A stretch of 64,000 bases of DNA from Polyangiaceae bacterium (GTDB taxonomy: Bacteria > Myxococcota_A > Polyangia > Polyangiales > Polyangiaceae), in the NCBI GenBank assembly GCA_044376115.1, contig JBILLK010000040.1, forward strand, positions 1-64,000, in the 5' to 3' direction. A model generated the notes under the pieces. That model searched no databases. It was not told the origin of the DNA and saw only the letters and a program-made list of their open reading frames with translations. The position numbers and the translations under genes are program-made. The number at the start of each line of letters is the position of its first letter. Positions within the stretch are counted from its first letter, which is position 1. Below, piece by piece: positions 15,534 through 56,972 of this stretch.

Positions 15534-16273
15534 GCAAGATCCCCGCTGCAGCGCGACATCTCGACTACATCGAGCACGACTACAGCCGGCTCGGCAAGTT
15601 CATCGGGCTCTTGATCACCATCGGTCTCGACGCGCTCCCGATCGCCATCGCGCTCACGGGACCTGCCGGGCTCGTCTTTGGTGCGGCCTTCTGGCTGGTC
15701 AAGTACAAGGTCAACAAGGCCATCGAGGACGAGCTGATGAAGCTCGGAGGGAGCATCAAATCGGATGGTGGCCCCGAGGTGGCCAAAGGTTCGGAGAACG
15801 TCTTCATCAACTCCCTCTCTGCTGCGCGGGGTGGACCCGATGGTGACAAGCTCAACTGCTTCACCCACGGGGAGTCGAAGATCGCAGCAGGGAGCAAGTG
15901 GGTGTACATCAACAACAAGCCCGCTGCGCGCATCGAGCTGGATCGAACCGAGTGTACCCACGGCGGCACGCTTCGCTCCAACCCGGCCTCTCCAAAGCCG
16001 AACGTCTTCTTCGGAGGCGAGCCAACCGAATACGACAACGAGTACTCGTTCCACACGGTGGTCGACTACGCCAACATCGGGAAAAAGGTCACCCAGGCTG
16101 CGATGAAGAAAGCGGGCGAGGGCTTCGCAGCGGCGATGCTGGAAGCGGCAAAGGAGGGCGGCGAAGACGCCGCCGACAAGGTCGCCGACAAGGTCGTGGA
16201 CTATCTCTGGAAAGATCCCACGTTCCCGAATCAAGCACCCAACCCGTGGAGAGATCCGGCGGGTGTGCGATGA
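15530..16273 (+). CDS. prePAAR-TMD-PAAR protein with short C-terminal tail
   Basis: prePAAR motif AARHLDYIEH (AARxxDxxxH); TM hairpin; GSENVFINSLSAAR, GSKWVYINNKPAAR. Confidence 0.88.
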   Translation: MSKIPAAARHLDYIEHDYSRLGKFIGLLITIGLDALPIAIALTGPAGLVFGAAFWLVKYKVNKAIEDELMKLGGSIKSDGGPEVAKGSENVFINSLSAARGGPDGDKLNCFTHGESKIAAGSKWVYINNKPAARIELDRTECTHGGTLRSNPASPKPNVFFGGEPTEYDNEYSFHTVVDYANIGKKVTQAAMKKAGEGFAAAMLEAAKEGGEDAADKVADKVVDYLWKDPTFPNQAPNPWRDPAGVR

Positions 16274-18714
16274 GCCTCGACAACAGCGCACGCCTGTCAA
16301 TCTCCAGCGGGGATCCGCTAGACGTGAGGTCCTTCGAGATCACGCAAGCGATGAGCTCGCTCTTTCGAGTCGTGGTGGTCGCCGTGTCGCCCAACCTCGA
16401 CATCGACTTCGACGAGGTCTTGGGAGAGGAAGCGGGATTCACCCTCTTCGCCGGCTCATCGGCTCGGTCCTTCTCCGGGGTCGTCGCCGAGATCAGCCAG
16501 CGACGCGTGGACGATCGAGGCCTCGGCACCTACGAGGTGGTGCTCGTGCCGCGGGCCTGGTTGCTCACCCAGCGCACGAACTACCGAATCTTCCAGTACG
16601 CCTCGGAGCTCGAGATCGTGCAGCGGCTCCTCTCCGAGTGGGGCGTGTCCCACCGGGTGGAGTGCGGAGGTGTTCACAAGAATCGTAAGTTCAGGATGCA
16701 GTACGGTGAGACCGACTACGCGTTCATGTCGCGTATGCTCGAGGACGCTGGCATCAGCACGTGGTTCGACGACGCCGAGGGGGAGAGTGTGCTGGTCCTC
16801 TCGGATGATCCCCAAAGCGCGCAAGTCGCTCATAGTCTTCGGTTCCACGACAATCCGGGCATCACCGACCATCACTTCGCCACGAAGGTCCACGTCGGTG
16901 AGCGTCTGCGCCCAGGGCGAACGACGATCGCCGACCTCGACCATCGGCGCCCCAGCACGAGCCAACCTTCGGCGAGCGCGGCTCTTGGGCTCGCCACTGA
17001 GGCCGCGCTCGAGCAGTTCGACTACGAGCCGGGCGCCTTTCTTTACGTAGCGTCGGCCGGCGGCAGCACCCCCGCCGCCGACGATCGCGGCACGTCGCGC
17101 ACCGATGAAAGCGCTGGCGCCACCAAAACCAACAATCGCCTCTTGGGCCGGAGGCAAGACCACCACGAGGTCTCGTTCACCTCCGACGCGATCGCGCTCG
17201 CCCCGGGCGCCACGCTGGTGATCGCAGATCATCCGCACGTGGCCGCCTCCGGTGCGTTGCTTCTGACCCGAGCCACGTTGCGTGGCGCACACAACGACGA
17301 CTTCCGCGTGGACATCGTGGCTGTGCCTGCGGGCGAGCCGTTTCGACCGGCACCCGTCACACCGAAGCCGCTCGTGTATGGTCTCGAGAGCGCGACGGTG
17401 GTTGGCCCGGGCACCGACGACATTCACACGGACGAGTATGGTCGCGTGCGCGTGCACTTCCACTGGGACCGCGAGAGCGGACGCAACGAGGCCAGCTCCT
17501 GCTGGATTCCGACCAATCAGCCGTGGGCGGGTGCGGGCTTCGGCGGCACGGTCATTCCTCGGGTCGGGCAAGAGGTCCTGGTGGAGTTTCTCGGCGGCGA
17601 TCCGGATCGGCCGGTCGTGATCGGACGGACGTACACGGAGCACCAACCACCTCCATACGAGCTCCCGCGAGGAAAGAAGCTCACGGCGCTCATCGGCAAT
17701 CCGACCCCTGGCATGCTCATGGGAGGAGCGATGGGTGGAGTCGATTCTCAGATCTTCGAGCTGCAGCGGGGCAACAGCCCTGCATTTACCTCCCTCACCG
17801 AGAACAGCATCCGAAGTTCCGGCAACACGGGAATTGCCGATCGCCAGCGAGAGCAGGCCAGAAATTCGAACCTGAAGCCAAACGATGAGTTTGCCGCCGA
17901 CCTCCCGCAAGACATGCGCACGCAGGCCGGCTACGGGGACACTCGGAACATGTTCGTGGTCGGTGACGAGAAGGACAAGAACCTCGTCTTCATGCAAGCG
18001 CAGCGAGACCTCAACATCCTGGCAAAGAACAACTGGCGCACGGTCGTCGGCAACTTCCGAGGCATCGCGATCCTCGGCAACGACGATCTGCACGTCCGCA
18101 ACAAGCAGCTCGTGTCGGTCGTGGACGCGCAGCTGCTCCAAGTCGAAAAGGACCAATCCATCGACGTGACGAAGAAGCGCACCGAGGACATCGGGACCAC
18201 GTGTGGCCTCATCGTGACCAAACACGCAAAGATCGAGGTCAAGACCACGATGACCCTCAAGGCCAAGAAGTCCATCGTGTTCGAGTCTGATGAGGCCATT
18301 CAGTTCAGGGTCGGTAGCTCGGTCGTGCGCATCGACAAGAACGCGATCGGGTTGAGCTCCAAGAGGATCGATCTGAACCCGGCAGCCGTGACCGCGAAGG
18401 CCCGCTTCGAGCCAATCACCGACGCCCGAAAGGCAGCGTTCGAGGCCGCGGCCCGCAAGGCGATGGCCGCAAAACCTGCATCACAGGAAGATCGTCTCAG
18501 CCAATACGAGTCGAGCCAAACGAATCCGGATCTGCAGCAGGCGGGCACGGACGGGTTGAACCACCAAATGCAGAACGGCGAGAACGCCAGCACGATCAGC
18601 GGCAACAACTACGCGGCGTACCGGGATCAGCTTCAGCGCGGCATGCATACGGGCGGACGCACGATGTCCCCGGAGATGGCCGACTCGACCCTGAATCAGT
18701 TCATGGCGCAGTAA
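16270..18714 (+). CDS. vgrG: VgrG copy 2 with ~110-aa C-terminal extension
   Basis: Same VgrG motifs; sequence continues after the terminal RIDLNP. Confidence 0.95.
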   Translation: MSLDNSARLSISSGDPLDVRSFEITQAMSSLFRVVVVAVSPNLDIDFDEVLGEEAGFTLFAGSSARSFSGVVAEISQRRVDDRGLGTYEVVLVPRAWLLTQRTNYRIFQYASELEIVQRLLSEWGVSHRVECGGVHKNRKFRMQYGETDYAFMSRMLEDAGISTWFDDAEGESVLVLSDDPQSAQVAHSLRFHDNPGITDHHFATKVHVGERLRPGRTTIADLDHRRPSTSQPSASAALGLATEAALEQFDYEPGAFLYVASAGGSTPAADDRGTSRTDESAGATKTNNRLLGRRQDHHEVSFTSDAIALAPGATLVIADHPHVAASGALLLTRATLRGAHNDDFRVDIVAVPAGEPFRPAPVTPKPLVYGLESATVVGPGTDDIHTDEYGRVRVHFHWDRESGRNEASSCWIPTNQPWAGAGFGGTVIPRVGQEVLVEFLGGDPDRPVVIGRTYTEHQPPPYELPRGKKLTALIGNPTPGMLMGGAMGGVDSQIFELQRGNSPAFTSLTENSIRSSGNTGIADRQREQARNSNLKPNDEFAADLPQDMRTQAGYGDTRNMFVVGDEKDKNLVFMQAQRDLNILAKNNWRTVVGNFRGIAILGNDDLHVRNKQLVSVVDAQLLQVEKDQSIDVTKKRTEDIGTTCGLIVTKHAKIEVKTTMTLKAKKSIVFESDEAIQFRVGSSVVRIDKNAIGLSSKRIDLNPAAVTAKARFEPITDARKAAFEAAARKAMAAKPASQEDRLSQYESSQTNPDLQQAGTDGLNHQMQNGENASTISGNNYAAYRDQLQRGMHTGGRTMSPEMADSTLNQFMAQ

Positions 18715-18718
18715 GGAG

Positions 18719-20770
18719 ATGTCGATGAGCTTCAACGACTTGAGCGTGACCATCGCCACCGGCGATACGCTGGACGTGCGGACCTTCAAAGTGGAGCAGG
18801 AGATGAGCAAGCTCTTCTCCGTCGAGCTCCTGGTTCGCTCCGAGAATCAGGACATCGATTTCGACGGCGTCATCGGTCAGGCCGCGACCTTCATGCTGAC
18901 CACCAACACGGAGCGTCCTCAGTGGTCGGGGATCTGCCTCGAGATGGAGCTCCTCCGCGTCGAAGAGACGGGCCTGGCGACCTACCGGCTCGTGATTGCG
19001 CCGCGGCTGTGGCTCCTCACGCAGCGCAAGAACTTCCGCATCTTTCAGTTCCTCTCGGATCTCGCCATCGCGCAGAAGCTCTTGAGCGAATGGGGGATCG
19101 AGACCGTCACGCGCGTCGACCCAAGTGTTCACGTGGCCCGCAAGTACCGCGTTCAGTACGACGAGAGCGACTTTGGTTTCATCTGTCGCCTACTCGAGGA
19201 CGCCGGCATCAGCTGGCGCTTCGAGGGCCCGGAGTCGAAGCTCGTGCTCGACGATGCACCCGAGACGAGAGACCTCCAACATCCGCTCGTCCGCTTCCAC
19301 GATGCGCCGTCCGTGACGGAGGGGGCCTTCGTGACCAAGCTCTCGGTCACCTCGCGTGTGCGCCCCGGGGCGATGGTCATCGGTGACGTCGACTATCGAC
19401 GGCGGAGCGATCGGCAACCGCGCGCTTCGGCGATGGCTGGGCTGCCGCAAGAGACGGTGCTGGAGCAGTTCGACCACGAGCCTGGAGCGTTCCTTTATGT
19501 GGGCAAGGGAGGTGGCGTGACCCCAGTCGCGGACGATCGCGGCGCAGCGCGCACGAGCGACGCCCTCGGTGATCGAAAGACGAAGAACCGGCTCGCGGGA
19601 AAGCGGCGAGACGCCAACGAAGCAATGTTCGAGTCGAACGTGCTGGAGCTCGCGCCAGGGTCGATCCTCAGCGTCGCGAATCATCCGCACCGCCAAGTCG
19701 CGCTGGACAGAGGACTTCTCGTAGTGCGGGCGGTGCTTTCGGGTGAGCACGCGAACGATTGGCGCGCGCAGGTGACGGCCGTGCCCACGTCTGCGCCGTA
19801 CCGCCCCGCGCTTCAGACGCCAAAACCGCGTGTCCGCGGGCTCGAGAGCGCGACCGTGGTCGGCCCTCCGGGAGAAGAGATCCACACCGATGAGTTCGGC
19901 CGTGTGCGTGTGCACTTTCACTGGGACAGAGAGAGTCAGCGCGACGAGAAGAGCTCGTGCTGGGTGCACACCGCTCAGCCTTGGGCGGGCAATGGGTTCG
20001 GGGCGATCAACCTCCCTCGAATCGGTCAGGAGGTCCTCATCGAGTTCCTCGGGGGTGATCCCGATCGTCCGTTCTTGGTGGGGCGTGTGTACACGGAGAC
20101 CAATCCACCGCCCGACGCCCTGCCGAAGTACAAGCACGTCGCAGGGCTCTTCACCGAATCGACGCCGCGTCTCGTCATGGGCGGCTCGACCAACTTTCGC
20201 GGCACGGGCGGAATCAAAGGTGGGACGCCCTTGACGCCCGCGGAGGTGTTGTCGCGAAGCTCGACCCCCGGCCCCAAGGACATCGTGTCGCCGACGGGCA
20301 CGAATCACAATTGGCAAGGCAGCGGCTTCAAGCTCTCTGACCAGTCGGGTGCCGAGAACTTCTACCTCCAGGCGAACAGGGACATGCACTGGGTCATTCG
20401 CAACAACTGGACGACCGTCGTCGGCAACGAGCGCAGCGCGGTGATTGGCACTCACGACATCACTGGCATCAAGCAAAACCAGAAGATCTTCATCGGCAGC
20501 AACCAAGATGTGCTCTGTCTGAGCCAGGTGAACAAGGTCACCGGCAACCGATACGACAAGGTGCACGAAGCCTTCTCCCAGACGGTCAACAAGGAAGTGA
20601 AAGTGGAGTCGACGACCGGCCAGCTGATCCTCAAAGCCGACGACGCCATCACGATTGATGGGGACGTCGCGGTCGAGTTTCGCGTGGGCGATTCTCTGAT
20701 CCGCGTCGACCCGAATCGGATCGGCATCGGCGCCGAGGGCAACCTGGTGCTGCTCAACCCAGGGCAGTGA
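18719..20770 (+). CDS. vgrG: VgrG copy 3
   Basis: VgrG motifs; AGGAG RBS; ends VLLNPGQ. Confidence 0.95.
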   Translation: MSMSFNDLSVTIATGDTLDVRTFKVEQEMSKLFSVELLVRSENQDIDFDGVIGQAATFMLTTNTERPQWSGICLEMELLRVEETGLATYRLVIAPRLWLLTQRKNFRIFQFLSDLAIAQKLLSEWGIETVTRVDPSVHVARKYRVQYDESDFGFICRLLEDAGISWRFEGPESKLVLDDAPETRDLQHPLVRFHDAPSVTEGAFVTKLSVTSRVRPGAMVIGDVDYRRRSDRQPRASAMAGLPQETVLEQFDHEPGAFLYVGKGGGVTPVADDRGAARTSDALGDRKTKNRLAGKRRDANEAMFESNVLELAPGSILSVANHPHRQVALDRGLLVVRAVLSGEHANDWRAQVTAVPTSAPYRPALQTPKPRVRGLESATVVGPPGEEIHTDEFGRVRVHFHWDRESQRDEKSSCWVHTAQPWAGNGFGAINLPRIGQEVLIEFLGGDPDRPFLVGRVYTETNPPPDALPKYKHVAGLFTESTPRLVMGGSTNFRGTGGIKGGTPLTPAEVLSRSSTPGPKDIVSPTGTNHNWQGSGFKLSDQSGAENFYLQANRDMHWVIRNNWTTVVGNERSAVIGTHDITGIKQNQKIFIGSNQDVLCLSQVNKVTGNRYDKVHEAFSQTVNKEVKVESTTGQLILKADDAITIDGDVAVEFRVGDSLIRVDPNRIGIGAEGNLVLLNPGQ

Positions 20771-29276: not shown

Positions 29277-29709
29277 TCACCTTAGGCTCTGCAACCCAAG
29301 TTCTGGACCCACGAGCTCCAACGTCCAGCCTTCGACTTCGAGCACGTCACCGCGCGAGAGCGCGTCTCCTCGACCGCCTTGCACTCTGACCTCTGCACCT
29401 TCACAGCGGGCCAGCTCGATCACGCTGCCAACGCGAACGCACAGTCTCGCCGCCAGGGGCACGCGGCAACCAGCGAGCGGTACGTCGACGCCCGCGAACT
29501 CGCCGATTAGCAGCTCGCCGGCGCGCAACGGGAGCCTCCGCGTCAGCGCGTCGATCGCGCCTGCTCAGGTGCGCTCAGCGTTGCGGCGTGCTCGACGGTG
29601 CACGCCGCGTAGTCGACCGGGATGCCCAGCCCGTCTGGCGTCGGCGGAACCAGCTGGAAACGATAGGCGCCGCACGCGAAGGTCTCGTACGCGCTTAGCC
29701 TCGTAGCGC
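29277..29709 (-). pseudogene. Degenerate duplicate of the 3' end of kinase 31035-32876
   Basis: Aligns with ~31060-31490; net ~13-bp deletion near 29565 shifts the frame; no 5' part. Confidence 0.85.
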
Positions 29710-31034: not shown

Positions 31035-32876
31035 CTATGAGCTGTCGTCAACGCCGCGCAACCTGACAAGCTCAGGACCCACGAGCTCCAACGTCCAGCC
31101 TTCGACCTCGATCACGTCACCGGGCGACACCACGTCTCCTCTCGAGCCTTGCACTCTGACCTCTGCCCCTTCGCAGCGGGCCAGTTCGATCACGCTGCCA
31201 ACGCGAACGCACAGTCTCGCCGCCACGGGCACGCGGCAGCCAGCGAGCGGCACGTCGACGCCCGCGAGGCCGCCGATCAGCAGCTCGCCTGCGCGCAAGG
31301 GGAACCTCCGCGTCAGCGCGTCGATCGCGCCTGCGCGGACCGAGAGCGACGGTACGCTCAGCGTGGCGGCCTGCTCGACGGTGCACGCGGCGTAGTCGAC
31401 CGGGATGCCGAGCCCGTCTGGCGTCGGCGGAACCAGCTGGAAGCGATAGGCGCCGCACGCGAAGGTCTCGTACGCGGATAGGCTCGTAGGGCTGGTTGCG
31501 CCCGGTAGGCCCTCGACGAGAGCGGCCGAGGCTGAGAGGAGCTTCACGCTCAGCGGCGGTAGCGTCGGGATCGGGATCGCGGAGCCTTCACCGACACGGA
31601 CTTCCGGCGGTCCCGCGTTCGGCGTGTGCGCTTGAACGACGAGCGGCACCCGCATGAACCTCCAGGCTCCGCGTGCCTCGACCAGCACCAAGCTCGGGAT
31701 GGCGAGACGGCTCGCGAGCTCGCACGCGAACGAAGGGAGCGGCGTCAAACGCGCGGACGGCGGCGGGCACAGTCCGCTCGTGCGTCGCGCGAGCTCCGGG
31801 TCGATCGGCGCCAGTGTGCCTTGCGAAGCCGCCATCAATGAAACAGGCACGCGCGTGCCGAAGGGCGCTGTCGCGTCGAGGTCCACGTCCGCGGACGGTG
31901 CGCGCGCCGCGGCGACCTCGCGCGCCGTCATCTTGATCGTCAGCGCGGCTTTAGGAGGAGCGACGACGGTCGGCGTGGAGCTCACGGCCGACTCGAGTTC
32001 AAGCACGAAGTCCGCCATCGATGCTGGGCGATCCACGGGCAGGCGCGCCATCGCCCTCGCGACGAACTGCGCGAGTGCGGGCGGCAGCGCAGGCGCGCGC
32101 ACGTTGAGAGGCACGTGGTCACCGTTGGAGATGCGCCGGAGCGCATCGATCGAAGCAATCCTGCCCGGACCGCGCGGCAGGAACGGGTGCTCGCCGCTCA
32201 GCATCTCGTCAAGCATCACGGCGAGGCTAAACACGTCCGAGCGCTCGGTGGCGCGCTCCCCGAAGATCCGCTCGCGCGCCATGTACGAGACCGTACCGGT
32301 GAGGACCTCTTCCTCTGTGGTCTTGCTAGCGGGCAGCTTCGCGATCCCGAGGTCGAGCAGCTTCACCTTGCGTTCTCCATCCGGCGCCACCGTCACGAAC
32401 ACGTTCTCCGGCTTCAGATCCCGATGCAGCACGCCTGCGCGGTGGAACGCGCCAACGGCGTCGGCGATCTGCTTCACCAGCGTGATCGCCTCGTCGACGG
32501 GCACCTTCCTCCTCGCGGCGCTCAGCGAGGTGAGCACGCTGCGCAGGTCACGCCCCGAGAGCCGCTCCATCACGATGAACACGCCGACGCGCTCGTCGAT
32601 GTCGGAGTGGTGGATCTGCACGACGTTGGGGTGGTCGATCAGCGCCAGCGCGCGGGCTTCGTCGACGATCCTGCGCGCGCGTTTTGGGTCTGCTCGGAGC
32701 GACGCTTTCTGGACCTTGATCACCGCCTCGCGCTGCATCACCCTGTGGCGCGCCGTGAAGAGCTGGCTCGTCCCACCGCTGGCGAGGAACGCGGTGACCT
32801 CGTAGCCGGCGAAGAGCTCACCGGGCGCACACGCGAGCGCTTCGCCCTGCGAGTCGAGCAAGCCATCCCCGGGCAT
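31035..32876 (-). CDS. Ser/Thr protein kinase with beta-rich (possibly FHA-like) C-terminus
   Basis: VIK, HPNVV, HRDLKPEN, DLGIAK, GTVSYMARE. Confidence 0.92.
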   Translation of the reverse strand: MPGDGLLDSQGEALACAPGELFAGYEVTAFLASGGTSQLFTARHRVMQREAVIKVQKASLRADPKRARRIVDEARALALIDHPNVVQIHHSDIDERVGVFIVMERLSGRDLRSVLTSLSAARRKVPVDEAITLVKQIADAVGAFHRAGVLHRDLKPENVFVTVAPDGERKVKLLDLGIAKLPASKTTEEEVLTGTVSYMARERIFGERATERSDVFSLAVMLDEMLSGEHPFLPRGPGRIASIDALRRISNGDHVPLNVRAPALPPALAQFVARAMARLPVDRPASMADFVLELESAVSSTPTVVAPPKAALTIKMTAREVAAARAPSADVDLDATAPFGTRVPVSLMAASQGTLAPIDPELARRTSGLCPPPSARLTPLPSFACELASRLAIPSLVLVEARGAWRFMRVPLVVQAHTPNAGPPEVRVGEGSAIPIPTLPPLSVKLLSASAALVEGLPGATSPTSLSAYETFACGAYRFQLVPPTPDGLGIPVDYAACTVEQAATLSVPSLSVRAGAIDALTRRFPLRAGELLIGGLAGVDVPLAGCRVPVAARLCVRVGSVIELARCEGAEVRVQGSRGDVVSPGDVIEVEGWTLELVGPELVRLRGVDDSS

Positions 32877-32889
32877 GCGGCGGCGCGGC

Positions 32890-33552
32890 CTACTTCCTGA
32901 GGCCTTCGAGCATGCGGCGATGCAAGACGCCCAGCGAGCCTTGCAGGCGCCGCCAGACTCCACTCGCCGTCATGCTGCGTCGCTCGCCTGCGGCCTGGAG
33001 CGTGCTGCCCTCGTAGAAGATCTCTTTAACGATCGCCCAGTCATCCTGCGGTAGCGTGGCCGCCGCCTGGTCGAGCGCCGCACGAACACGCTCGAGCTCT
33101 TGCGCCTCCTCGAGCTCCAGCTCGGGTGAAGGCGAGGCCTGCGGCGCGACGAGCGCAAGGAACGACGCGGCGATGACCGCTGCTGCGCCGCGCCGACGAT
33201 GGGCGGTGCGTTCTTCCTCGGCGGCGAAGTAGTCACCTTCGTCCAGATGCACGGTGACCGGCGCGACGCTGTCCGCGATGGCGCGCAGGATGCGCCGCTC
33301 CGACGACTCGGCGTTCAAGGTGTTCAGCATCGCGCCCAAGATCCGGTGGTAGCTGAGCTGCATGAAGCGCTCGAGGGGCTCGCCGGCGTGGCTCGGCGCC
33401 CGCTCGCACACCACCTCCATCCCGATCTGGTGCAGCTCCTCGATACGATCGCGTTCGGAACGCGCGACCCGCCTCGCGATGAGGCGCACCTCTTCCTCCG
33501 CTGCGGTGATCAGCTTGTGAGCGGAGCGCGCCTGCGTCGCATCAGGAAGCAT
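32890..33552 (-). CDS. Sigma-70 family sigma factor (FliA-like regions 2 and 4)
   Basis: EELHQIGM...YHRILGAML (region 2); LPQDDWAIVKEIFYEGSTLQAAG (region 4). Confidence 0.78.
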   Translation of the reverse strand: MLPDATQARSAHKLITAAEEEVRLIARRVARSERDRIEELHQIGMEVVCERAPSHAGEPLERFMQLSYHRILGAMLNTLNAESSERRILRAIADSVAPVTVHLDEGDYFAAEEERTAHRRRGAAAVIAASFLALVAPQASPSPELELEEAQELERVRAALDQAAATLPQDDWAIVKEIFYEGSTLQAAGERRSMTASGVWRRLQGSLGVLHRRMLEGLRK

Positions 33553-33823
33553 CCGACTTCCTCGATGAAGTGGCCACGGGCTCCTCGGCGCCCGGCTTCA
33601 GCTGCTCATCCGACTCCACGCGCGGCGCGCGCGAATCCACGAGCGCCTCGTCGGCGAGCCGCCGCATCACCGGATGCGTCGCGTACAGATCGCTCACCAG
33701 CGTATGAATCGCCTTGAACGTGCTCGGGCGGAGCAGCGACTCGAAGCCCTCCATCGACTCGTCAGCGAGATCTTCGACTGTCTTCGGCTGCTTGGTGGCT
33801 GACACGTACCCCTCCCCTTTCAT
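33542..33823 (-). CDS. Small hypothetical protein overlapping the sigma gene, paralog of 41364-41594
   Basis: PKTVEDLADE...FE.LL.P.T...IH.L..DLY.THPVM.RLA.EAL; start uncertain. Confidence 0.65.
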   Translation of the reverse strand: MKGEGYVSATKQPKTVEDLADESMEGFESLLRPSTFKAIHTLVSDLYATHPVMRRLADEALVDSRAPRVESDEQLKPGAEEPVATSSRKSDAS

Positions 33824-33897
33824 GAAAGCAGCGGCCGCCGTGGTCGGCAAGAGGCTCAGGATCTCGTTCATCTGCGTCGGATAAGGACCGGCCATGA

Positions 33898-34492: not shown

Positions 34493-35149
34493 TCATTCGC
34501 CAGGCTGAAAGATGCTATCGAACTTGTTCGCCAGCTCCTGTGCGAAGCGGATCAGTCTCGGTCCCTTCATGTCGAAAGGATCGGCGAGCTGCATCACGAT
34601 CGGGATCGTTGCGGGAAGTCGCATTGTGCTGCCGTCTTCCCACGGATACTCGAGATGAGGGCCGGATTTTGAGACTGCTGGGTGAGCCTTCTCGAGTGCT
34701 TGAACTAGCGGGAGGACGTCTTTCCAGGAGTACCTCAGCTGCAAGAATTTGTTGTGGTTCTTGATCTGATTCACCAGTCGCGACGCGGCAACGTGACTGG
34801 TTCGACACGCAATGAAGGCCTGCTCGTCTGTGCGCGCGAGCGCTGCCTTCGCGAGCTTCTCGAAGACCATCTGAAGCAGCATCGCCAGCACAGATGCAGG
34901 CCGCGCGCCGTCGGCAGAGAGAATCTCGATGGCCCTGAGGTCTTCCCTCGCCTGCGCAAGCAGCGCATCCGACCACGCACCAACCGGAAGGTTTATCGGT
35001 CGAAATGTTTCGTCGAGCAGGCTCTCCAGGTGCCCAGTCAGCGTTGAGTACGCGTTCGCACACTTGGCCAGGTCGAACGGGGTGGCAGCCAGCTCGCGGC
35101 TGACCTCGCCCATCCACTTGCGGACGCTCTTCTCGAGATCGTTCGCCAT
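34493..35149 (-). CDS. HEPN-like domain protein
   Basis: W...QAREDL...LQMVFEKLAKA...SH...EYPW resembles HEPN. Confidence 0.6.
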   Translation of the reverse strand: MANDLEKSVRKWMGEVSRELAATPFDLAKCANAYSTLTGHLESLLDETFRPINLPVGAWSDALLAQAREDLRAIEILSADGARPASVLAMLLQMVFEKLAKAALARTDEQAFIACRTSHVAASRLVNQIKNHNKFLQLRYSWKDVLPLVQALEKAHPAVSKSGPHLEYPWEDGSTMRLPATIPIVMQLADPFDMKGPRLIRFAQELANKFDSIFQPGE

Positions 35150-35475
35150 CACTCGTTGAAGGTGATCGGGACTAACTTGGGCGCGCTGCCCCAGGTGGCC
35201 GGAAGGCTCAACTCTCCACGGTCGAGCTTCTGCTTCTCGTCGGGGCTCATCAGAATGATCACGGACGGGTACGGGACATCGAGGTCTGGTCTCGCGCCAA
35301 AACGAAACGGCATCACCGAACCCGTGTCGCCCACGGAACCCGACACCTCCACGAGACGCACCTCGGCCCCGGCGGGGTCTGAGATCAAGTAGATCGCCGT
35401 GATGTCATCGTCTGCGTCCTTGTGTGCGCGTGCGAGATCGCGAGCAACCTCTTCGACAGAGCGATTCGAACTCAT
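35149..35475 (-). CDS. Small protein coupled to the HEPN-like gene (MNT-like antitoxin candidate)
   Basis: EVRLVEV...PFRF...PSVIILMSPDE...LPATW; TGATG overlap. Confidence 0.6.
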   Translation of the reverse strand: MSSNRSVEEVARDLARAHKDADDDITAIYLISDPAGAEVRLVEVSGSVGDTGSVMPFRFGARPDLDVPYPSVIILMSPDEKQKLDRGELSLPATWGSAPKLVPITFNE

Positions 35476-35628
35476 GAGCAAACTCTAGCCCGGCGGCGTT
35501 TGCTCCACCGGAGAAAAGTACCTCTGCTCGACCATTGGACTCTCCATCCAGCCGTTAAGAGACACGCGTCGCGGGGCTCGTGTAGCCGCCCTCGGTGCAG
35601 CTGAATCCCGACACGCTGTTGCTGGGGA

Positions 35629-36585
35629 CTACTCACCGTGCCGTTCGGCCAGGACGAGTGCCACGTCGTCGTGGAAGTTACCCGACGGCAAGGCGGCCGC
35701 GGCGACGAGTTGGTCAACGGCAGTGCGGATGTCGCCCGTCGACGCAATCGAGGCAAGTCTCGCGGGGGCCACATACTTGAGAAGTCCATCTGTAGCGACC
35801 AGGAGCCGCCCCAAGAGGGCGCACGGCACGATGGGCCGTGCGCGTGCGCTTCCGCTACCAACCAGGGGCTTGCGGATCTGGGGCGCGAGTGTTGGAGACT
35901 CGGGTGCGTTGCTAATTGATGGATCCACCCTGCTGGATCTTACCGCGGACCAGATCTCGCGACCTCGCGTCTGCAAGACTACAACGGTGGTCTCTCCGTA
36001 ACTGGCGTCAGCGGCCAGCTTCCTGTCCCATTCCTCAATGAGCTGACACCACCCGTTCGAATCCAGCTCCGCTTTCGCTCCCGCCGCGGCCAGGCCGTCC
36101 GCGAGGTCGCGAGCAGCGGGCGCGCCGCCGGACATGCCGCCAGCACCATCCGCAACGACAACCGTCCATCGCGTGCCGCAGCAGCTTACCTCCAGCCGGT
36201 CCTCGTTTCTGCTCCCCGCGACGCGTCTCGTCCACAGATGCATCCACGCTCGCGGCTGATCGACCGTCGTGTAACCCTCGCACGGCCCAAAGTCGACGCG
36301 CTCTAGCGTGTTGTCGCGGAACCAGACCGTCGCATCGTCCTCTTCGGTTCCGCATTTCTCGCAGACGGTTTCGATCGCTGCAGGAACGGTGACGACACCG
36401 CCCGAGTTCGTCCCGTAGTCCCCGAGCGGAGCAACCCGGCCTGGGGCATCGTGCCAGCAGATCTGGCTTCCGAGCTCATGGTCGCGGAGCCGACAATACC
36501 CGTACTTGAACTGCGCAGCCCACGACTGCTCATGGCCGCAAGAAGGACAGGTGCCTCGAAACAGCGCTCGGTCAAAGGTTCCCAT
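35629..36585 (-). CDS. Zn-ribbon domain fused to a PP2C-family phosphatase with an internal inverted segment
   Basis: CPSCG...QFKYG...CEKCG, then from M at 36243 NEDR, VADGAGG, ATDGL, DDVA; the VGDS motif lies on the opposite strand. Confidence 0.8.
   Translation of the reverse strand: MGTFDRALFRGTCPSCGHEQSWAAQFKYGYCRLRDHELGSQICWHDAPGRVAPLGDYGTNSGGVVTVPAAIETVCEKCGTEEDDATVWFRDNTLERVDFGPCEGYTTVDQPRAWMHLWTRRVAGSRNEDRLEVSCCGTRWTVVVADGAGGMSGGAPAARDLADGLAAAGAKAELDSNGWCQLIEEWDRKLAADASYGETTVVVLQTRGREIWSAVRSSRVDPSISNAPESPTLAPQIRKPLVGSGSARARPIVPCALLGRLLVATDGLLKYVAPARLASIASTGDIRTAVDQLVAAAALPSGNFHDDVALVLAERHGE
35875..35956. other. 68-bp intragenic inversion (35882-35949) bounded by 7-bp IRs
   Basis: GATCTGG 35875-35881 and CCAGATC 35950-35956; the + strand reads WGASVGDSGALLIDGSTLLDLTADQI. 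Confidence 0.85.
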
Positions 36586-36783
36586 TCGGCGAAGGCTTGT
36601 CCAGCTAACCAGTGTTGGCCAGCGTCAGGTGTCAGAGGGCGTCAGTCAGAGAACACGAATCTTGCGGATACCCGCGGCGAGCTTCCGAATGTCGGTTGGG
36701 TCGCCTGTGGCAGTTATGGAGGCCGGAAACTGAGCGGCAGTGGCAACGACGAAGGAAGTTGCAGAGAAACTCTTCGAAGGAGA

Positions 36784-37083
36784 TCAATCGCAGATTACGA
36801 GCAGTCCGAGACCCGCGGCGCGAGCGGACGTGGCGAGCTGGATGAGCGCTTCCGCGGACTGTGGCTCGCAGCTGTGCAGCAACCGAAGCTCGGCGACGAG
36901 TGACTCGAGTTCGTCGAGGTCGAAGGCCGTGTCGCGGTAGAAGTCGCTGAGGCGTCGAAACAAGGGGAACGCGGCCTCGGTGCTACGTGCCCTCTCGATA
37001 AGCGCACAGTAGGGCTCAGCGCCTAGATCGAAGGTAGGACCTCTGGCAGCGGCGTCGTTCTCATAGGTAAACAGTAGGCCCAT
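36784..37083 (-). CDS. Small hypothetical cassette protein
   Basis: ATG 37083 downstream of an attC-like site; FPLFRRLSDFY. Confidence 0.6.
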   Translation of the reverse strand: MGLLFTYENDAAARGPTFDLGAEPYCALIERARSTEAAFPLFRRLSDFYRDTAFDLDELESLVAELRLLHSCEPQSAEALIQLATSARAAGLGLLVICD

Positions 37084-37194: not shown

Positions 37195-37282
37195 GTCCAA
37201 CGTATTGGCGTTCAGCGACGGGCGCCAGACGAGCGAGCCATGGAGGGCAGTCGTCCGCGTCCGCAGCGACGCCTTGTTAAGT
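37195..37282 (-). mobile_element. attC-like site
   Basis: Minus strand ACTTAAC-AAGGCGTCGCTGCGG...CGCTGAACGCCAATAC-GTTGGAC; R''/R' cores with paired inner arms. Confidence 0.8.
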
Positions 37283-38114: not shown

Positions 38115-38202
38115 GCCCACCAAGCCGTTGCTTCAGACAATCGCCGTCGGTCGGCCTTCGGCCTCCTTCTGGCGCTTGCCGCAGAACGCCGGTACCTTAG
38201 CC
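38115..38202 (+). mobile_element. Degenerate attC-like site in the opposite orientation
   Basis: GCCCACC-AAGCCGTTGC...GCAGAACGCCGGTAC-CTTAGCC; both core triplets mutated. Confidence 0.55.
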
Positions 38203-38217: not shown

Positions 38218-38276
38218 GAGCCACTTTTTTGCGTTGAGCCGAGCGAAGCGAGGGCCGCAGCAACGCCTTGTTGGCC
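38218..38276 (-). mobile_element. Partial attC-like site
   Basis: Minus strand GGCCAAC-AAGGCGTTGCTGCGG...CGCTTCGCTCGG; right arm degenerate. Confidence 0.5.
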
Positions 38277-39509: not shown

Positions 39510-39707
39510 ATCTCCGGTGCCCAACGTACCGACGTCCTTCAGCGAATGACAGACCGAGCGAAGCGAGATAGGGCCGACTGGAGATCGTGGGGGTCGGAAG
39601 TGAGATAGCTCCGTCGGGCTCCGCGAATGCACAACGAGGGCATCGCGCGATCGCCTCGGCAAGGTCGTCGTTGGTCGCGCTAGAGCGAACCTTTTGAAGG
39701 TCCTTGT

Positions 39708-40096: not shown

Positions 40097-40170
40097 GCCT
40101 AACGTATTGGCGTTCTGCGGCGAATCCCAGAGGGAGCGAGGAACGAGCGACCGACGGCGCTCGGCAGCTT
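40097..40170 (-). mobile_element. attC-like site with truncated left arm
   Basis: ...CGCCGCAGAACGCCAATAC-GTTAGGC on the minus strand, directly after the stop of 40171-40443. Confidence 0.7.
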
Positions 40171-40443
40171 CTACCACCCGATCTCCTCGTCAGACGCGTC
40201 GTGTCCGAAAGCGACAACGGGAAGGGTTGAAAGGTCTCCTGCCGCGAGGCCTGCCTCGACGATCGAAGACTTGAGGAACAGCTCAGTCCCTAGTCTACGG
40301 GAGAAGCGTGTTGCTAGGTGATCCCCCCAAGCGAGGGCCTGATCAGCATCTGGCGCGTCAACCATGAAGCAGGCCGGCCACTCGTGATCCGGGTCGCCGA
40401 CCTCCTTGGTCGAATCGCGGAACCATGCCGCATACATGAACAT
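40171..40443 (-). CDS. Small hypothetical cassette protein
   Basis: YAAWFRD...DHEWPAC...WGDHLA...EIGW; lies between two attC-like sites. Confidence 0.7.
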   Translation of the reverse strand: MFMYAAWFRDSTKEVGDPDHEWPACFMVDAPDADQALAWGDHLATRFSRRLGTELFLKSSIVEAGLAAGDLSTLPVVAFGHDASDEEIGW

Positions 40444-40480: not shown

Positions 40481-40567
40481 AGCTAACGTATTGGCGTTCA
40501 GCGGCGGGCGGAAGAGTGAGGCCGAAGGCCGACCGAAGCCGAGCCGACCGCTAACGCTCAGTTGGGC
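40481..40567 (-). mobile_element. attC-like site
   Basis: Minus strand GCCCAAC-TGAGCGTTAGCGG...CCGCTGAACGCCAATAC-GTTAGCT. Confidence 0.85.
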
Positions 40568-41363: not shown

Positions 41364-41594
41364 TCATGAAAGCAGCGGCCTCCGCCTTCGGCAAGGCTCA
41401 GACTCGCTGCGCTCGGCGTTCGATTGGCTCAAGGCTTCTTGGGCGAGACGGCTCATCACGGGGTGGGTCGTGTAGAGGTCGCAGAGCAGGTCGTGAATCA
41501 CCTGATAGGTCGCTGGGCATAGCAGCTCCTCAAACCCATCGAGGCCTTCGTCGGCGAGGTCCTCGATCGTCTTCGGTCGTTTCTTGTCGTTCAT
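41364..41594 (-). CDS. Small hypothetical protein, paralog of 33542-33823
   Basis: PKTIEDLADE...DLYTTHPVMSRLAQEAL. Confidence 0.7.
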   Translation of the reverse strand: MNDKKRPKTIEDLADEGLDGFEELLCPATYQVIHDLLCDLYTTHPVMSRLAQEALSQSNAERSESEPCRRRRPLLS

Positions 41595-44738: not shown

Positions 44739-45132
44739 AGACCCTATCAACAGGCTCGCCGAGATCGTGCGACGTCGTCCGGACCCTGTTGAAAGGGTCC
44801 CAGAGACTTCGAAAGTCTCCTGGACCCTGTTGAATGGGTCTCTTTTGACACACCCGGTCTTTTTGACCCTGTTGAAAGGGTCCTAGAGACACGACTGTCT
44901 CTTTTTGAGCCATTCAACAGGGTCCAGGAGAGGCAAAAAGTCTTTTGGACCCTGTTGAGAGGGTCCCAGAGACACGACTGTCTCTTTTTGAGCCATTCAA
45001 CAGGGTCCAGGAGAGGCGGAAAGTCGTTGGGACCCTGTTGAGAGGGTCCCGGAGACACGACTGTCTCTTTTTGAGCCATTCAACAGGGTCCGGGAGAGGC
45101 GGAAAGTCGTTGGGACCCTGTTGAGAGGGTTG
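44739..45132. repeat. Phased array of ten 20-bp boxes at 41/42-bp spacing, alternating orientation (83-bp higher-order unit)
   Basis: GGACCCTGTTGARAGGGTCC or reverse form TGAGCCATTCAACAGGGTCC at 44739, 44781, 44822, 44864, 44906, 44947, 44989, 45030, 45072, 45113. Confidence 0.92.
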
Positions 45133-45140
45133 GAGAGGTG

Positions 45141-45300
45141 CGACCGGGACCTCAGGTGGCGCTCTAGACCGGGTGCCTGGGTGACACTGTCCGGGTGCCT
45201 AGGTGACACTGTCCGGGATGGTTGGCGACGTGGTCCGGGGTGGCTGGCGGGCTTGACCGGGTGGGTCGGTGACGCAGACCGGGAGGATGGGGGCACGACA
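45141..45300 (+). repeat. 22-bp-period CCGGG repeat block, copy 1
   Basis: CCGGG at 45169, 45191, 45213, 45235, 45257, 45279; unit CCGGGTGCCTRGGTGACACTGT. Confidence 0.85.
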
Positions 45301-46912: not shown

Positions 46913-46965
46913 GCCCAACAAGGCGTTGCACCTAACGATCGCCGGTGAACGCCAGTACGTTGGGC
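46913..46965 (+). mobile_element. Short attC-like site (53 bp)
   Basis: GCCCAAC-AAGGCGTTGCACC...GGTGAACGCCAGTAC-GTTGGGC; perfectly complementary cores. Confidence 0.85.
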
Positions 46966-47071
46966 AGACGGTTGCTATGACCTTGTTGAGACGCCTGTAG
47001 CGACGCTGATTGCCGGCTCGATCTTTGCGTTCTATCGGGACAGCAGCGGGGCGCCCGCGCGGGTGCACGTC

Positions 47072-47338
47072 ATGACCGCGACCTCTCTTGTTGTACTGTT
47101 TTGGCTCCCAGCTTTGTTCGTCGGGTCGGTGCGGCAATTGTCGCAGCGAGCTCTCCCGCTCTCCGCGTGGCTGGGCTGCGCGGCGGTTGCCTACGATGCC
47201 GGTACGTCGTTCGTCGTTTCCAAGAGCGAGTTTCCCAACCCAGTCATGTGGCCCCTCGTTTTCCTGGCCGGTGCGGGACTCTTGGTCGTCCACGCTTTCG
47301 TGGGCACCCTCAACGGCCCAAGGCCGAGAGACGCCTAG
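47072..47338 (+). CDS. Small membrane cassette protein
   Basis: Three hydrophobic segments; lies between two attC-like sites. Confidence 0.5.
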   Translation: MTATSLVVLFWLPALFVGSVRQLSQRALPLSAWLGCAAVAYDAGTSFVVSKSEFPNPVMWPLVFLAGAGLLVVHAFVGTLNGPRPRDA

Positions 47339-47356
47339 GCCGCGCGGCCGCATGCC

Positions 47357-47437
47357 AATCAACTGGCCGTTGCTGCCGACTCCGCTCTCGGCCGCTCCTC
47401 CCTCAAGACGTGGCGGCGGAACGGCGGTTCGTTGGGA
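47357..47437 (+). mobile_element. attC-like site
   Basis: AATCAAC-TGGCCGTTGCTGCC...GGCGGAACGGCGGTTC-GTTGGGA. Confidence 0.65.
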
Positions 47438-47439
47438 AG

Positions 47440-47980
47440 GCAAGTGAAGCCAGCTCCGGCAGTTCATGGCTGTTCGTCGACGGCAACCACCGGCTGGATG
47501 AGCTCCTCATCCACCATCACAGGAACTCGCGCCTGCTCGTAACCTCGCACGATAGTGGACCGTTCACTCCTGGGCCCGACGAACTGGCAGCCGGGTGGGT
47601 TCGCGTTGGAGCGGTGGCGGTGAGCCCCACGCTCACCGCCGGGGCTGCGGATCCCTGCGGCCGGCTTCGACGAGTGGTACCTGTTTGAATAGTTGCCCAG
47701 CGCGTTCACACCTGAGGTGTTCGTGAACTTCGTTCCCTTCCCCTTGGGGTGAGATCCCGAAGACAGCGATTCCAACACTCGTGCCCATAGGTTGTGGCGC
47801 CAACTGGAGAGCGTGCGTCCAATCACATACGCCGCCCAAGCGTATCGGGACGCGGTGGTCAGCTCCAATATCGAGTTCATCCGCGACATCGTCGCTCTCT
47901 TGACTGAGCTATCACCGCCGCGATTTCGCTTCGTGAGGGCCCAACACGCTCCGTTGCAGAGAGGGCAGCTGCCCAACTGA
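47440..47980 (+). pseudogene. Degraded cassette gene
   Basis: DSGPFTPGPDELAAGW..., frameshift near 47655, then GFDEWYLFE*...EVFVNF...*...LWRQLESVRP; ends in the attC core. Confidence 0.65.
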
Positions 47981-48053
47981 GCGTTGCAGCGGATGGTAGC
48001 CTCAGTCGCTTCGCTCCCGCTTCCTCCCGCCGCAGAACGCCAATACGTTGGGC
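47971..48053 (+). mobile_element. attC-like site
   Basis: GCCCAAC-TGAGCGTTGCAGCGG...CCGCAGAACGCCAATAC-GTTGGGC; next ATG 9 bp downstream. Confidence 0.88.
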
Positions 48054-48061
48054 GGACACGC

Positions 48062-49348
48062 ATGACCACTGGGGACGGAACACAGAAGCTGCGCGACGCC
48101 TTGGCCCAGCTCAAGGCCCTGCTCGCCCAGGTCGATGTTCCAGAGGCACGCTTTCAGCAATGGTTTGAGCAGCACCCAATAGTCTTCGAGGCGCTCGGGT
48201 TCCGGCAGTGGATCCCGCAGCCCCGGTTCCCGCTCGGCGATGGCCGCTTCCTCGAGCCTGACTTCCTGGTTGAGGACTTCAATGCGGTCTGGTCTGTCTT
48301 CGAGCTGAAGCGGCACGAAGCAACGGTGCTCAAGAACCCCGATCGTCGCACGGACTTTCGCTCCGATTTCTCGACCTACGTTCAACAGTGTCGCGAGTAC
48401 GCCATCCACTTCGCAGACTCAGCCAATCGGCGCTTTGCCAGCGACCAGTACAAGATCAACATCCAGCGTGAGGTACCAAGCATCATTGTAGCGTCCACCG
48501 ACGACTTAACGGACCATGCGGTCGCGCGCGATCTCCTCATCGATCGTGGAAACCGCGTCGAGCTGCGCACCTATTCTGAAATTTTGCGAACCTTGCTTCG
48601 CCAGCTTGATTGGACCTCAATCGATGTTGCGCGCCGCCCCGGAATCGCCATGGGAGTGCTCGGTGTGTTCCCTGTGGGCTCGTCGGAGCAAGTGCTCTTC
48701 GACTTCGGCAAGCAGCGCAGCCGGAGCCGCGCTTCCATTGGCCTTCAGGGGACGAAATTCTTCCTGAGCCTGGTCGACGCGGACGGTCATTTGCAGCGGT
48801 GGGAAGTCGAGAGGCCCGTTGTGCCAGATTTCGCCAACGCGACCCCGCTCGAGTTGCTTGAGCTCGAGGTCGGCGTATCCGCTGGGTCACTGTACGTCTC
48901 CGCGCACCACAATCGGCGATGCCTTGTGCAACAGCACCTTCCAGCAACACGCATAGCTCTGGACGACCTCGCTGGCGGAATGGCCATCGGAACCGATGTC
49001 ACCGGAAAGAAGCCCTGCAACTTCAGCCTGGTCGAGTCGTTCGCCTACATGCGTACGCTCGCCCCGAGCGAGCGCTTGCAGATCTATGACCATCTCGATG
49101 AGGTCTATCACCACTACCTGAGCCCGCTTGCAGTGGAACGACCGGGTCGAGCCGTCTTTCGCGGCAGCAAGTGGATGACAACGGCGGGCCACCCGCTGTC
49201 CAACGAGCCGGCGAAACCCACGCCCGACACAACCGGTCCGTGGGGCTGGTGGACCTCTAGCGCAATGGTCCTCGACGACGGTAAACCACCGCCGCCTGAT
49301 CGTCGGCTTGGAGCGCAGAGGATTTTACTCCCAGGGATGAAGAGCTAG
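48062..49348 (+). CDS. Shedu/DUF4263-like PD-(D/E)XK nuclease with C-terminal beta-rich domain, cassette
   Basis: EARFQQWFEQHP, PDFL, FELK, QQCREY (QxxxY), TYSEIL. Confidence 0.78.
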   Translation: MTTGDGTQKLRDALAQLKALLAQVDVPEARFQQWFEQHPIVFEALGFRQWIPQPRFPLGDGRFLEPDFLVEDFNAVWSVFELKRHEATVLKNPDRRTDFRSDFSTYVQQCREYAIHFADSANRRFASDQYKINIQREVPSIIVASTDDLTDHAVARDLLIDRGNRVELRTYSEILRTLLRQLDWTSIDVARRPGIAMGVLGVFPVGSSEQVLFDFGKQRSRSRASIGLQGTKFFLSLVDADGHLQRWEVERPVVPDFANATPLELLELEVGVSAGSLYVSAHHNRRCLVQQHLPATRIALDDLAGGMAIGTDVTGKKPCNFSLVESFAYMRTLAPSERLQIYDHLDEVYHHYLSPLAVERPGRAVFRGSKWMTTAGHPLSNEPAKPTPDTTGPWGWWTSSAMVLDDGKPPPPDRRLGAQRILLPGMKS

Positions 49349-49359
49349 GCACCAAGGCC

Positions 49360-49443
49360 GCCAAACAAGGCGTTGCTGCGGACGACTACCCTCCCTCGCT
49401 TCGCTCGGTCTGGCACTCGCCGCAGAACGCCAATACTTTGGGC
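49360..49443 (+). mobile_element. attC-like site with mutated R' core
   Basis: GCCAAAC-AAGGCGTTGCTGCGG...CCGCAGAACGCCAATAC-TTTGGGC, 11 bp after the nuclease stop. Confidence 0.75.
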
Positions 49444-49566
49444 GGGCGGAGAACTAACTTGAGCCTTCGATCGGACCTCGTAGAAGCATTGCGTGACCTC
49501 TCACAGAACAGCTATCTGCTGGCACTCTCGACGTACGACCTTTGCGCAACGGAAATCCGATGTGTA

Positions 49567-49711
49567 CGACCGGGACCTCAGGTGACTGTTTTGACCGGGT
49601 GCCTTGGTGACACTGTCCAGGACCCCGCGAATACGCTCCGGGATGGTAGGAGACGTGATCCGGGTAGCTGCCGTCATTGACCGGGTGGGTCGGTGACGCA
49701 GAGGACGATGG
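49567..49711 (+). repeat. 22-bp-period CCGGG repeat block, copy 2 (direct repeat of 45141-45300)
   Basis: CGACCGGGACCTCAGGTG...CCGGGTGCCTTGGTGACACTGTCC...CCGGGTGGGTCGGTGACGCAGA. Confidence 0.85.
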
Positions 49712-55436: not shown

Positions 55437-56972
55437 TCACGTTCGTCTTGCGGTTGCGGCGCTTCGCTTCTTCGCTTTGTCGAATGCGCCAGCCGTCGCC
55501 TCTCGCACCCGCGCGAGCATCGCCTCGGCGGGCTCGTCGTTCGGGTCCTGTGGGACGAGCTCCCCGCGAAAGGCTTTGGCTAAGGTCGACCGATCCAACC
55601 GCTCAAGCCCTTCGCGCTGTCGAAGAAGCACGCTGCGCAAGGCTGCGAGGTCGGCAAGACGCTTTTCGGTGCGCGCCACGATCGCTCGCTGTTCCTCGAG
55701 CGGAGGAACGACGGTAGCCAGATGGATGACGTCATGGCAGTTCAGGTGCCTCAGCGTCATGCCCTTTTCGATGGCACCGAAGGCTCGTTGTGCGGTCGGA
55801 GAACCGAAGAAGAGAGACAAGTAGTTGCCGTCAAGAACCTCTTCGAGGGGCGAAATTACAATCATGGCGTGACAGTTGTGACCCTCGTGCTCGGGAGGGA
55901 CGACAGCGGAATCCCCCACGTGACCAGTCTGCACCAACAAGACATCTCCAGTGTTGAGGATGGACTTGCGATTCCGTTGGTTGAACTCCTTGGTGATGAA
56001 CGTCGCGCCATCAAATCGAAGCACGTTCTTTTTTACATGTTTGGAGAGCAGATAGGGGACTCCCTCCTCAACGTAGATATTCCGCGTCGGACCTACATAC
56101 CCATTGGTCAGCCGCCACACGACCTCGCCAAGTTCAACAACACACCACCCCTCTGGCAGCTCCGGCAAGCCGGTCGTGTCGACGGGCTCGGGCTCCTTGT
56201 ACTTGGCCTTCCATTTGTCGTCGGTTGGGGGCTTGCCCTTCGCCTTCATCTTGGCGAGTTCGGTGTCTTCCCATTTCTTGCGGCGCTCGGTGCGGATGCG
56301 TTTGAGGAGCTCGCTGGCTGGCTCGACGTCCTTGTGCTTCGCGCGCCAGTCCTTTGTGAGGTCGCCGCGAAAGGCCGCCGCGAGAATCGATTGGCGGAGC
56401 TTCTCGAGCAGCGGCGGCACGGCGTCGAGCGCCTCACGCGCGCGACGGCTTCGGGCTTGGAGCGCTTCGAGCTTGGTGACGATGCGGCGTTGTTCATTGA
56501 GGGGTGGAACGCCGACGGAGACGCCTCGGATATCGTCAAGGCCGAGCCCAGCCTTCGTCACTCCTCGGCGCATATCGAGCAACTGCCGCTTCCCTGCACT
56601 GGCAAAGAACCACGCAAGAAAACGCGCATCGAGCCCGGCGCGCGGGCGGGCGAGTGCGATGTGCTGATTGATGTAAGCTTCACCGAGGTTGTCGGGGACC
56701 AGTCCAACCATGCCGAGTTCCGCGGTGATGGAGATGAGTATGTCTCCGGCGCGGAGTCGCGTTCGCTGGCCCTCGGAGTTCGTCGGGGGTTTGACGTGCT
56801 GTCGCTCCTTCAGGTCGAGCGAGATGGTGTCGTGGTCGAGATTGCCGATGCGAACAAACAGCGGGCCGGTGTCGGTATAGAACTGCGCCCAGCCACGCGA
56901 GCCACTGGTGACGAACTCGAACAGGTCCCCTGACGAGCGAAGCACCCACCCCGGCGGAAGTTCCTCACTCAA
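55437..56972 (-). CDS. hsdS: Type I R-M specificity subunit
   Basis: ELPPGW, PPLNEQRRIV, AFRGDLT, LPEGW, PPLEEQ, AFRGELVPQDPNDEPA; TTG overlaps the hsdM stop. Confidence 0.95.
   Translation of the reverse strand: MSEELPPGWVLRSSGDLFEFVTSGSRGWAQFYTDTGPLFVRIGNLDHDTISLDLKERQHVKPPTNSEGQRTRLRAGDILISITAELGMVGLVPDNLGEAYINQHIALARPRAGLDARFLAWFFASAGKRQLLDMRRGVTKAGLGLDDIRGVSVGVPPLNEQRRIVTKLEALQARSRRAREALDAVPPLLEKLRQSILAAAFRGDLTKDWRAKHKDVEPASELLKRIRTERRKKWEDTELAKMKAKGKPPTDDKWKAKYKEPEPVDTTGLPELPEGWCVVELGEVVWRLTNGYVGPTRNIYVEEGVPYLLSKHVKKNVLRFDGATFITKEFNQRNRKSILNTGDVLLVQTGHVGDSAVVPPEHEGHNCHAMIVISPLEEVLDGNYLSLFFGSPTAQRAFGAIEKGMTLRHLNCHDVIHLATVVPPLEEQRAIVARTEKRLADLAALRSVLLRQREGLERLDRSTLAKAFRGELVPQDPNDEPAEAMLARVREATAGAFDKAKKRSAATARRT

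Follow-up and report, generated by a model that had tools for sequence, protein, structure and literature searches.

An apparently recent 68-bp micro-inversion probably disables an accessory PP2C phosphatase gene in a lake population of a Polyangiaceae bacterium

The genome considered here (10.1 Mb, 63.7% GC, 94 contigs, 95.9% complete) was analysed around the first 64 kb of contig C8 (70,565 bp), and this stretch of 64,000 nucleotides is referred to below as the window. An open reading frame on its minus strand (36585-35629) encodes a protein of 318 residues, in which an N-terminal domain of unknown family (114 aa, 36244..36585, minus strand) is fused to a PP2C/PPM phosphatase domain (residues 115-318, 35629..36243, minus strand). 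The N-terminal domain is mostly beta, contains two CxxC pairs and has no match in Pfam at E 0.001. Full-length homologues with 46-52% identity have the same two-domain layout, and the nearest named ones come from Sorangium, Polyangium and Minicystis. Fusion of two cassettes through a lost stop codon was ruled out, the layout being common to 11 homologues. The CxxC domain is fused to PP2C in the Sorangium-type homologues and stands alone in protein P0126; an open reading frame located beyond the window (locus L029, 1612-2253, plus strand) starts with a similar CxxC pattern, as judged by eye from unaligned sequences.

The protein has motifs 1, 2, 8 and 11, and according to its model probably the fold, in common with the bacterial PP2C/PPM phosphatases (tPphA 2j82, Stp1 6ihl, PstP 1txo; Pfam PF13672 / PF07228). 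Its homologues match tPphA at E 5.6e-17 and fold onto Stp1. In contrast to these enzymes, it belongs to a short subfamily with an RKPL(V/L)GSG segment, the nearest homologues add the N-terminal CxxC domain, and this allele lacks motif 5. As the original prediction had stated, the metal-binding motifs are otherwise in place: D129, D146-G147, D266-G267 and D306-D307 (motifs 1, 2, 8 and 11) are intact, and motif 5 (GDS) is absent from the sequence as it stands, position 218 being occupied by Ser. The Pfam PP2C match of the protein is below the cut-off (17.2 bits against 24).

The region of motif 5 is occupied by a 68-bp spacer (35882..35949) between two inverted repeats. The left arm GATCTGG (35875..35881, plus strand) is part of the Gln-Ile codons that precede the RKP motif on the minus strand, and the right arm CCAGATC (35950..35956, plus strand) is part of the Glu-Ile-Trp codons. 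The arms are exact 7-bp reverse complements, as predicted, and their pairing extends inwards to 13 bp with two mismatches (to 35887 on the left and to 35944 on the right, 11 of 13 positions paired). Motif 5 and the next two strands of the fold were originally encoded by the plus strand of the spacer: it reads GASVGDSG, the family motif, and is found on its own by the family profile (hit at 35828-35974, plus strand, E 7.3e-6). When the spacer is flipped back in silico, 23 residues (213-235) are changed, position 218 becomes Asp, and the 318-residue frame is open, as it is in the sequence as found. The earlier statement that re-inversion restores the motif in frame, with both orientations free of stops, was thus correct.

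A comparison of profile scores proposed together with the original prediction favours the flipped-back version, which scores 300.4 bits against a profile of 77 homologues (240.8 bits as found). It also gains against the two paralogues from the same genome (98 to 119 bits and 81 to 110 bits), codon usage within the segment improves from a score of -12.7 to +3.2, and the number of conserved columns filled within the segment rises from one to all 12 of 12 (homologue mean 11.1). Since profile and paralogue scores, conserved columns and codon usage all improve upon flipping back, the inversion is genuine, far beyond chance, and the VGDS orientation is ancestral. The alignment with 16 homologues is gap-free at the segment, and the length of the spacer is unchanged.

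The inverted protein is the sole member of its cluster at 90% identity, and among 78 matches no other protein is more than 55% identical to it. The flipped-back allele, which would be 93.7% identical, was not found in the protein collections searched. The motif pattern is matched by 76 of 77 homologues, the 77th reading LGDS. In a further set of 142 representatives, 131 match the strict pattern, and the others are seven point variants, three fragments missing the region and one deletion; the recoded peptide is absent from this set (best E 8.1). A search among fragments (30-111 residues, 303 candidates) produced two matches, P0085, which covers residues 258-318 only, and P0224, which is 51% alike, neither of them showing the intact orientation of this allele. 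Two scans were made in a collection of metagenome contigs that may omit the records of this genome, and both are therefore silent on orientation: an exact scan with 36 spacer bases gave 0 matches, and a scan with the protein pattern gave 171 pattern matches, of which 0 were confirmed. A DNA search of 40 relatives returned two short weak matches and no orthologue.

In the remainder of the protein, 50 of 55 conserved columns are retained, compared with a mean of 48.7 (range 38-53) in 66 homologues. DNA identity to four Sorangium genes is 57-65% in the flipped-back segment and 60-65% in the flanks. These comparisons indicate a recent inversion, as drift is apparent neither in the former reading frame of the segment nor elsewhere in the gene. 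The intact remainder of the gene would also fit, more weakly, selection for a rarely shown ON state.

The PP2C family is patchily distributed, with a match in nine of 60 relatives and in four of 10 members of the genus. Two paralogues with an intact motif are encoded in the same genome, on contigs C25 and C44. Some other members of the family appear damaged: a copy in genome G006 is split and contains stops (L035/L037, G006:C138:119990-120434), a match in genome G002 ends early (L034, G002:C7), a Minicystis copy has a 22-residue deletion (L027), and P0084 is deleted across motif 5.

The neighbours of the PP2C gene are likewise short, encoded on the minus strand and low in codon score, and together they form a run at the end of a candidate cassette array. 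The attC-like sites of this array were scored with a covariance model that we built from eight attC-like sites of this genome, rather than with that of IntegronFinder. The site nearest to the gene is at 37195..37282 (minus strand, 41.6 bits). It is followed by sites at 38115..38202 (plus strand, 59.6 bits), adjoining a weak minus-strand site at 38219-38276 (15.3 bits), at 39519..39593 (minus strand, 24 bits), at 40097..40195 (minus strand, 39.5 bits), and at 40481..40567 (minus strand, 78.2 bits), the last being one of the eight training sequences and thus matching by construction. Further attC-like sites were observed at 46913-49443 (plus strand) and beyond the window (L029, 2619-3845, plus strand). 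The genes among the plus-strand sites encode a PIN_8 protein (45712), a protein matching Shedu SduA_C (48062) and a deaminase (50095). Between 35504 and 36796 the only scored attC is a chance-level one inside the PP2C gene. The heptamer GTTAGCT (36603..36609, minus strand) precedes the start codon by 18 bp and is a possible cassette core site, as it can be aligned to the 3' ends of attC-like sites; its surroundings are unscored, and it is at most a remnant.

An integron integrase was found only on contig C25, where IntI exceeds the TIGR02249 cut-off at 125077-126015 (region 106500-126500, L028). This contig carries a complete integron, with at least six strong attC hits downstream of IntI and one of the intact PP2C paralogues at 111434-112051. 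Hits to attC also lie just upstream of the PP2C homologues in L024 (Sorangium) and L032 and near L035, as well as in the C25 array. Because the homologues sit behind attC hits and the C25 paralogue is located in the array of IntI, the PP2C family appears to be cassette-borne. The array on C8 itself may be assigned to CALIN, described as clusters of two or more attC sites without an integron integrase nearby (PMC4889954): short genes at 37-41 kb are interspersed with five or more attC-like sites, and intI is matched elsewhere in the genome but nowhere on this contig. It differs from the described CALIN in that its sites were scored by our own eight-site model, occur on both strands, and do not directly adjoin the PP2C gene. 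IntI as the cause of the inversion was rejected, as the arms have no GTT core and the segment is unscored by the attC model.

The Asp218 of the flipped-back protein aligns with D119 of tPphA. The original description of this motif as catalytic is roughly right, as this is the motif-5 aspartate assigned to the third metal; it is the need for that metal in bacterial enzymes that is disputed in one account (PMC12088040), whereas another calls the third metal essential (PMC13142519). In AlphaFold models built from near-identical alignments, pLDDT over residues 211-240 is 73/56/67 for the inverted protein against 97/97/97 for the intact homologue P0006, and strands 222-227 and 230-233 of the homologue do not form in the inverted protein. 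As the recoding exchanges 23 residues, among them the motif-5 Asp and those of two core strands, the inverted product is probably inactive or at least impaired as an enzyme.

The region is present, wholly or partly, in 24 sequencing runs, 23 of them labelled lake water and none listed as RNA; seven contain at least half of its words. The orientation was examined in four of the 24 (X1-X4), in all cases as assembled contigs rather than raw reads. These are four samples from four studies, dated 2020 and 2024, all of lake water and possibly sharing one campaign. Only the inverted form is present in the contigs of the four runs, letter-identical across the segment. The pieces listed for these runs include no joint to the other orientation and no extra piece at either junction. 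In X1 and X2, which may be the source of the window itself, the whole 3-kb stretch lies within one 10,780-bp contig with zero differing letters. In X3 a single piece over 35469-36926 bridges both junctions. In X4, the run from 2020, the piece at 34534-35973 bridges the left junction and passes the right one by 24 letters, under the 31-letter rule. The pieces listed, which exclude 13 loose ends and three further pieces, explain the depth of the two junction-holding bins (35814-36015) in all four runs.

The sensitivity of this comparison is finite. Contigs of 61 bp with alternative letters are retained in X3 at depths 2.9 and 3.8, so a second orientation at such depth could have survived assembly. 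On a rough Poisson estimate with word depths 11.7, 14.8, 6.1 and 7.5, the chance to see a minor form is 0.93 if it makes up 20% of the population, 0.39 for 10% and 0.08 for 5%; these are upper bounds on power, since contigs drop rare variants, and a minor form under approximately 10-20% would be missed. The original prediction had proposed that the inverted orientation, if it were the only one in reads and relatives, would mark a dead allele rather than a switch. It is indeed the only one found, within the limit of assembled contigs at 6-15-fold word depth.

An assembly or library artefact has a negligible probability. Short inverted repeats can seed chimeric reads, and this is the sole point in its favour. 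However, the same orientation recurs letter for letter in four runs from different samples and studies (2020 and 2024), and the exact inverted protein is encoded on four contigs from three sources; the VGDS orientation is absent from the contigs of every run examined, which rules out misassembly as far as contigs can. Another possibility, and one of the two readings originally offered, is a programmed intragenic inverton, that is, a segment flipped by a recombinase acting in trans, in a population that is mostly OFF. Recoding intragenic invertons have been described (Chanin et al., PMC10028968; e.g. 57 bp in BT0375, nagA), and the present segment resembles them in lying within one gene, in its length, in being open in both orientations, and in recoding a part of the protein. 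A flip would affect precisely the motif-5 region of an otherwise intact gene, and a missing neighbour recombinase is no bar, as the invertases of the elements described in that paper were not identified. Elsewhere in the genome there are four PF00589 tyrosine recombinase matches, one of which is the IntI on C25, and one partial IS110 match (PF01548). On the other hand, contig C8 has no match to TIGR02249, PF00589, PF00239, PF07508 or PF01548, and PF00239 and PF07508 have none in the genome as assembled. Moreover, the described invertons are defined by reads in both orientations, whereas a single orientation was found here, both in contigs and in protein collections, and the thiC inverton has a longer repeat, of 11 bp (PMC10028968). 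Elements found wholly in reverse may, according to the same paper, have lost the ability to flip. Perfect repeats of at least 7 bp with spacers of 20-100 bp occur 8.0 times per kb in the window, with four in the PP2C gene and 8-17 in each of five homologous genes, and 131 of 190 comparable flips (69%) inside 61 predicted genes of the window are stop-free. As both are so common by chance, 7-bp arms and stop-free frames are no sign of a switch. The arm pair is not enriched in the genome (13 occurrences against 16.5 expected), and the hairpin is not unusually stable (z -1.4 and -1.6). In the nine comparable loci among 13 homologous ones recovered by pattern, the arms pair at 5, 5, 5, 5, 6, 1, 1, 1 and 1 of 7 positions, these loci being only 55-65% alike in DNA and no close orthologue having been found. 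Where Sorangium and Minicystis pair in part, this is a consequence of their codons; the arms consist of ordinary codons and lack conservation among homologues. Thus the ON/OFF inverton was not borne out, and we consider it highly improbable.

A related possibility is that an unprogrammed inversion is still segregating or reversible, the intact allele persisting or being regenerated by template switch in a minority below some 10% of the population. Reversal is possible in principle, as a flip leaves the arms in place; repeated flips at short spacers have been reported in yeast (PMC8604942), letter variants occur nearby in the population (35499 and 36927 in X3; P0003), and the power of detection is poor below 10%. 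However, nothing among the junctions and bin depths of the four runs gives it positive support, and this reading is very unlikely. Taken broadly, a reversible switch of either kind, driven by a recombinase or by replication, would convert a signalling phosphatase into a pseudo-enzyme and back by inverting its motif-5 strands alone. Such a switch, set mostly to OFF in the lake and relying on 7-bp repeats that current inverton finders would miss, is very unlikely. Finally, the inversion might have created in one step a selected new function, namely a pseudophosphatase that still folds and binds a substrate or partner, or one whose importance lies in its N-terminal domain. Four of the five metal-binding Asp motifs are kept in an open frame, the inverted allele is fixed in the runs examined, and the model of the inverted protein retains the overall fold with a mean pLDDT of 88. 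Both this model and that of the homologue match Stp1-type PP2C folds (E 4e-11 and 9e-9, the inverted one at 9e-9 with a TM of about 0.53 of the query). However, the modelled fold is carried by an alignment of intact homologues, on which the model leans, and the allele is known from one population only. The plus strand of the segment still fills every conserved column, and the new frame is thus without sign of evolution. Fixation, in its turn, is expected from drift or hitch-hiking in a near-clonal population, and a selected new function is highly improbable.

Very probably, then, this is a recent micro-inversion, fixed or nearly fixed in the lake population, that probably disables an accessory PP2C and represents an already known type of mutation. 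Such an inactivating fixed inversion, the other reading originally offered, fits all results. In this scenario a single recent mutation would have inverted the 68 bp between two short inverted repeats present by chance inside the gene. Its cause was probably an inter-strand template switch between the arms at the replication fork. Recombinase-independent recombination between the same microhomologies would yield the same sequence, and is a possible but doubtful cause. The inverted allele would then have become fixed, or nearly so, in one lake population. Its loss of activity would be tolerated because the gene is accessory, derives from a cassette and occupies the far end of an attC array without an adjoining integrase; such a loss is presumably cheap, because the family appears to be cassette-borne, is patchy and has damaged members, and because two intact paralogues are present in the genome.

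Template switching has been described to invert spacers flanked by short repeats, and in the process the arms can be created or perfected (PMC5453318, PMC8604942). The product observed here matches it: the spacer is reverse-complemented with its length preserved, the crossovers lie within the outer 7 bp and the two inner mismatches are kept. No intact allele or orthologue above 55% protein identity was found against which the four switch points could be placed. The exact inversion of the spacer, the short arms, the dispensability of a recombinase and the one-off occurrence in one lineage are all shared with template-switch spacer inversions (Ripley model; four-point model, PMC5453318; yeast coding cases, PMC8604942). 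In contrast, the spacers of the yeast coding cases described are 2-5 bp long and the arms exceed 9 bp, whereas here the spacer is 68 bp (23 residues) and the perfect arm 7 bp. The authors ascribe the short yeast spacers to selection against long inversions in proteins (PMC8604942). A long spacer would be tolerable here, because a dispensable gene removes this filter. A genome-wide screen for gain in codon usage gave 2,542 candidates from 159,992 repeat pairs, swamped by wrong-strand frames; it failed to recover the known case and was discarded.

The locus provides a natural example of a frame-preserving micro-inversion that seems to disable an enzyme and leaves the ORF open, so that neither gene callers nor checks of length would flag the gene as damaged. 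On the most likely reading the event itself matters little. It also carries a caution for inverton hunting, as a switch cannot be deduced from a frame open both ways (69% by chance) or from 7-bp arms (8 per kb). Regular flipping, if true, would mean that intragenic phase variation can work with very short repeats and can reach Ser/Thr signalling in bacteria that live freely.

Several other features were observed in the window. Just downstream of the PP2C gene there is an overlapping gene pair (34493-35481, minus strand) encoding proteins of 110 and then 219 aa, the second with weak matches to DUF6586 (E 1.5e-4) and HEPN (E 0.25). The layout of the pair is reminiscent of a nucleotidyltransferase-HEPN toxin-antitoxin pair. 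The cassette run has at its far end a 76-aa ORF (41364-41594, minus strand) that resembles, by eye, a part of the 117-aa gene at its near end (33542-33895, minus strand), as if the array had been inserted with a partial duplication. The 3' end of a Ser/Thr kinase gene (31035-32876) is duplicated at a distance of 1.77 kb downstream with 91-93% identity (29297-29709 and 31067-31492), and the duplicates flank two tandem paralogous genes of Cys-rich lipoprotein-like proteins.

In the non-coding region 44774-45284, between two oppositely oriented blocks, an 83-bp unit is repeated four times in tandem, with short repeats rich in GGGTG/TGTCC behind it, and another copy of the unit is located 4.4 kb away, at 49564-49622. 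Three VgrG-like genes (Phage_GPD, Phage_base_V, Gp5_trimer_C) are clustered at 11720-20770 (plus strand). The genes of a type I restriction-modification system (R, M and S) occupy 55437-63438 (minus strand), with a GmrSD gene between R and M.
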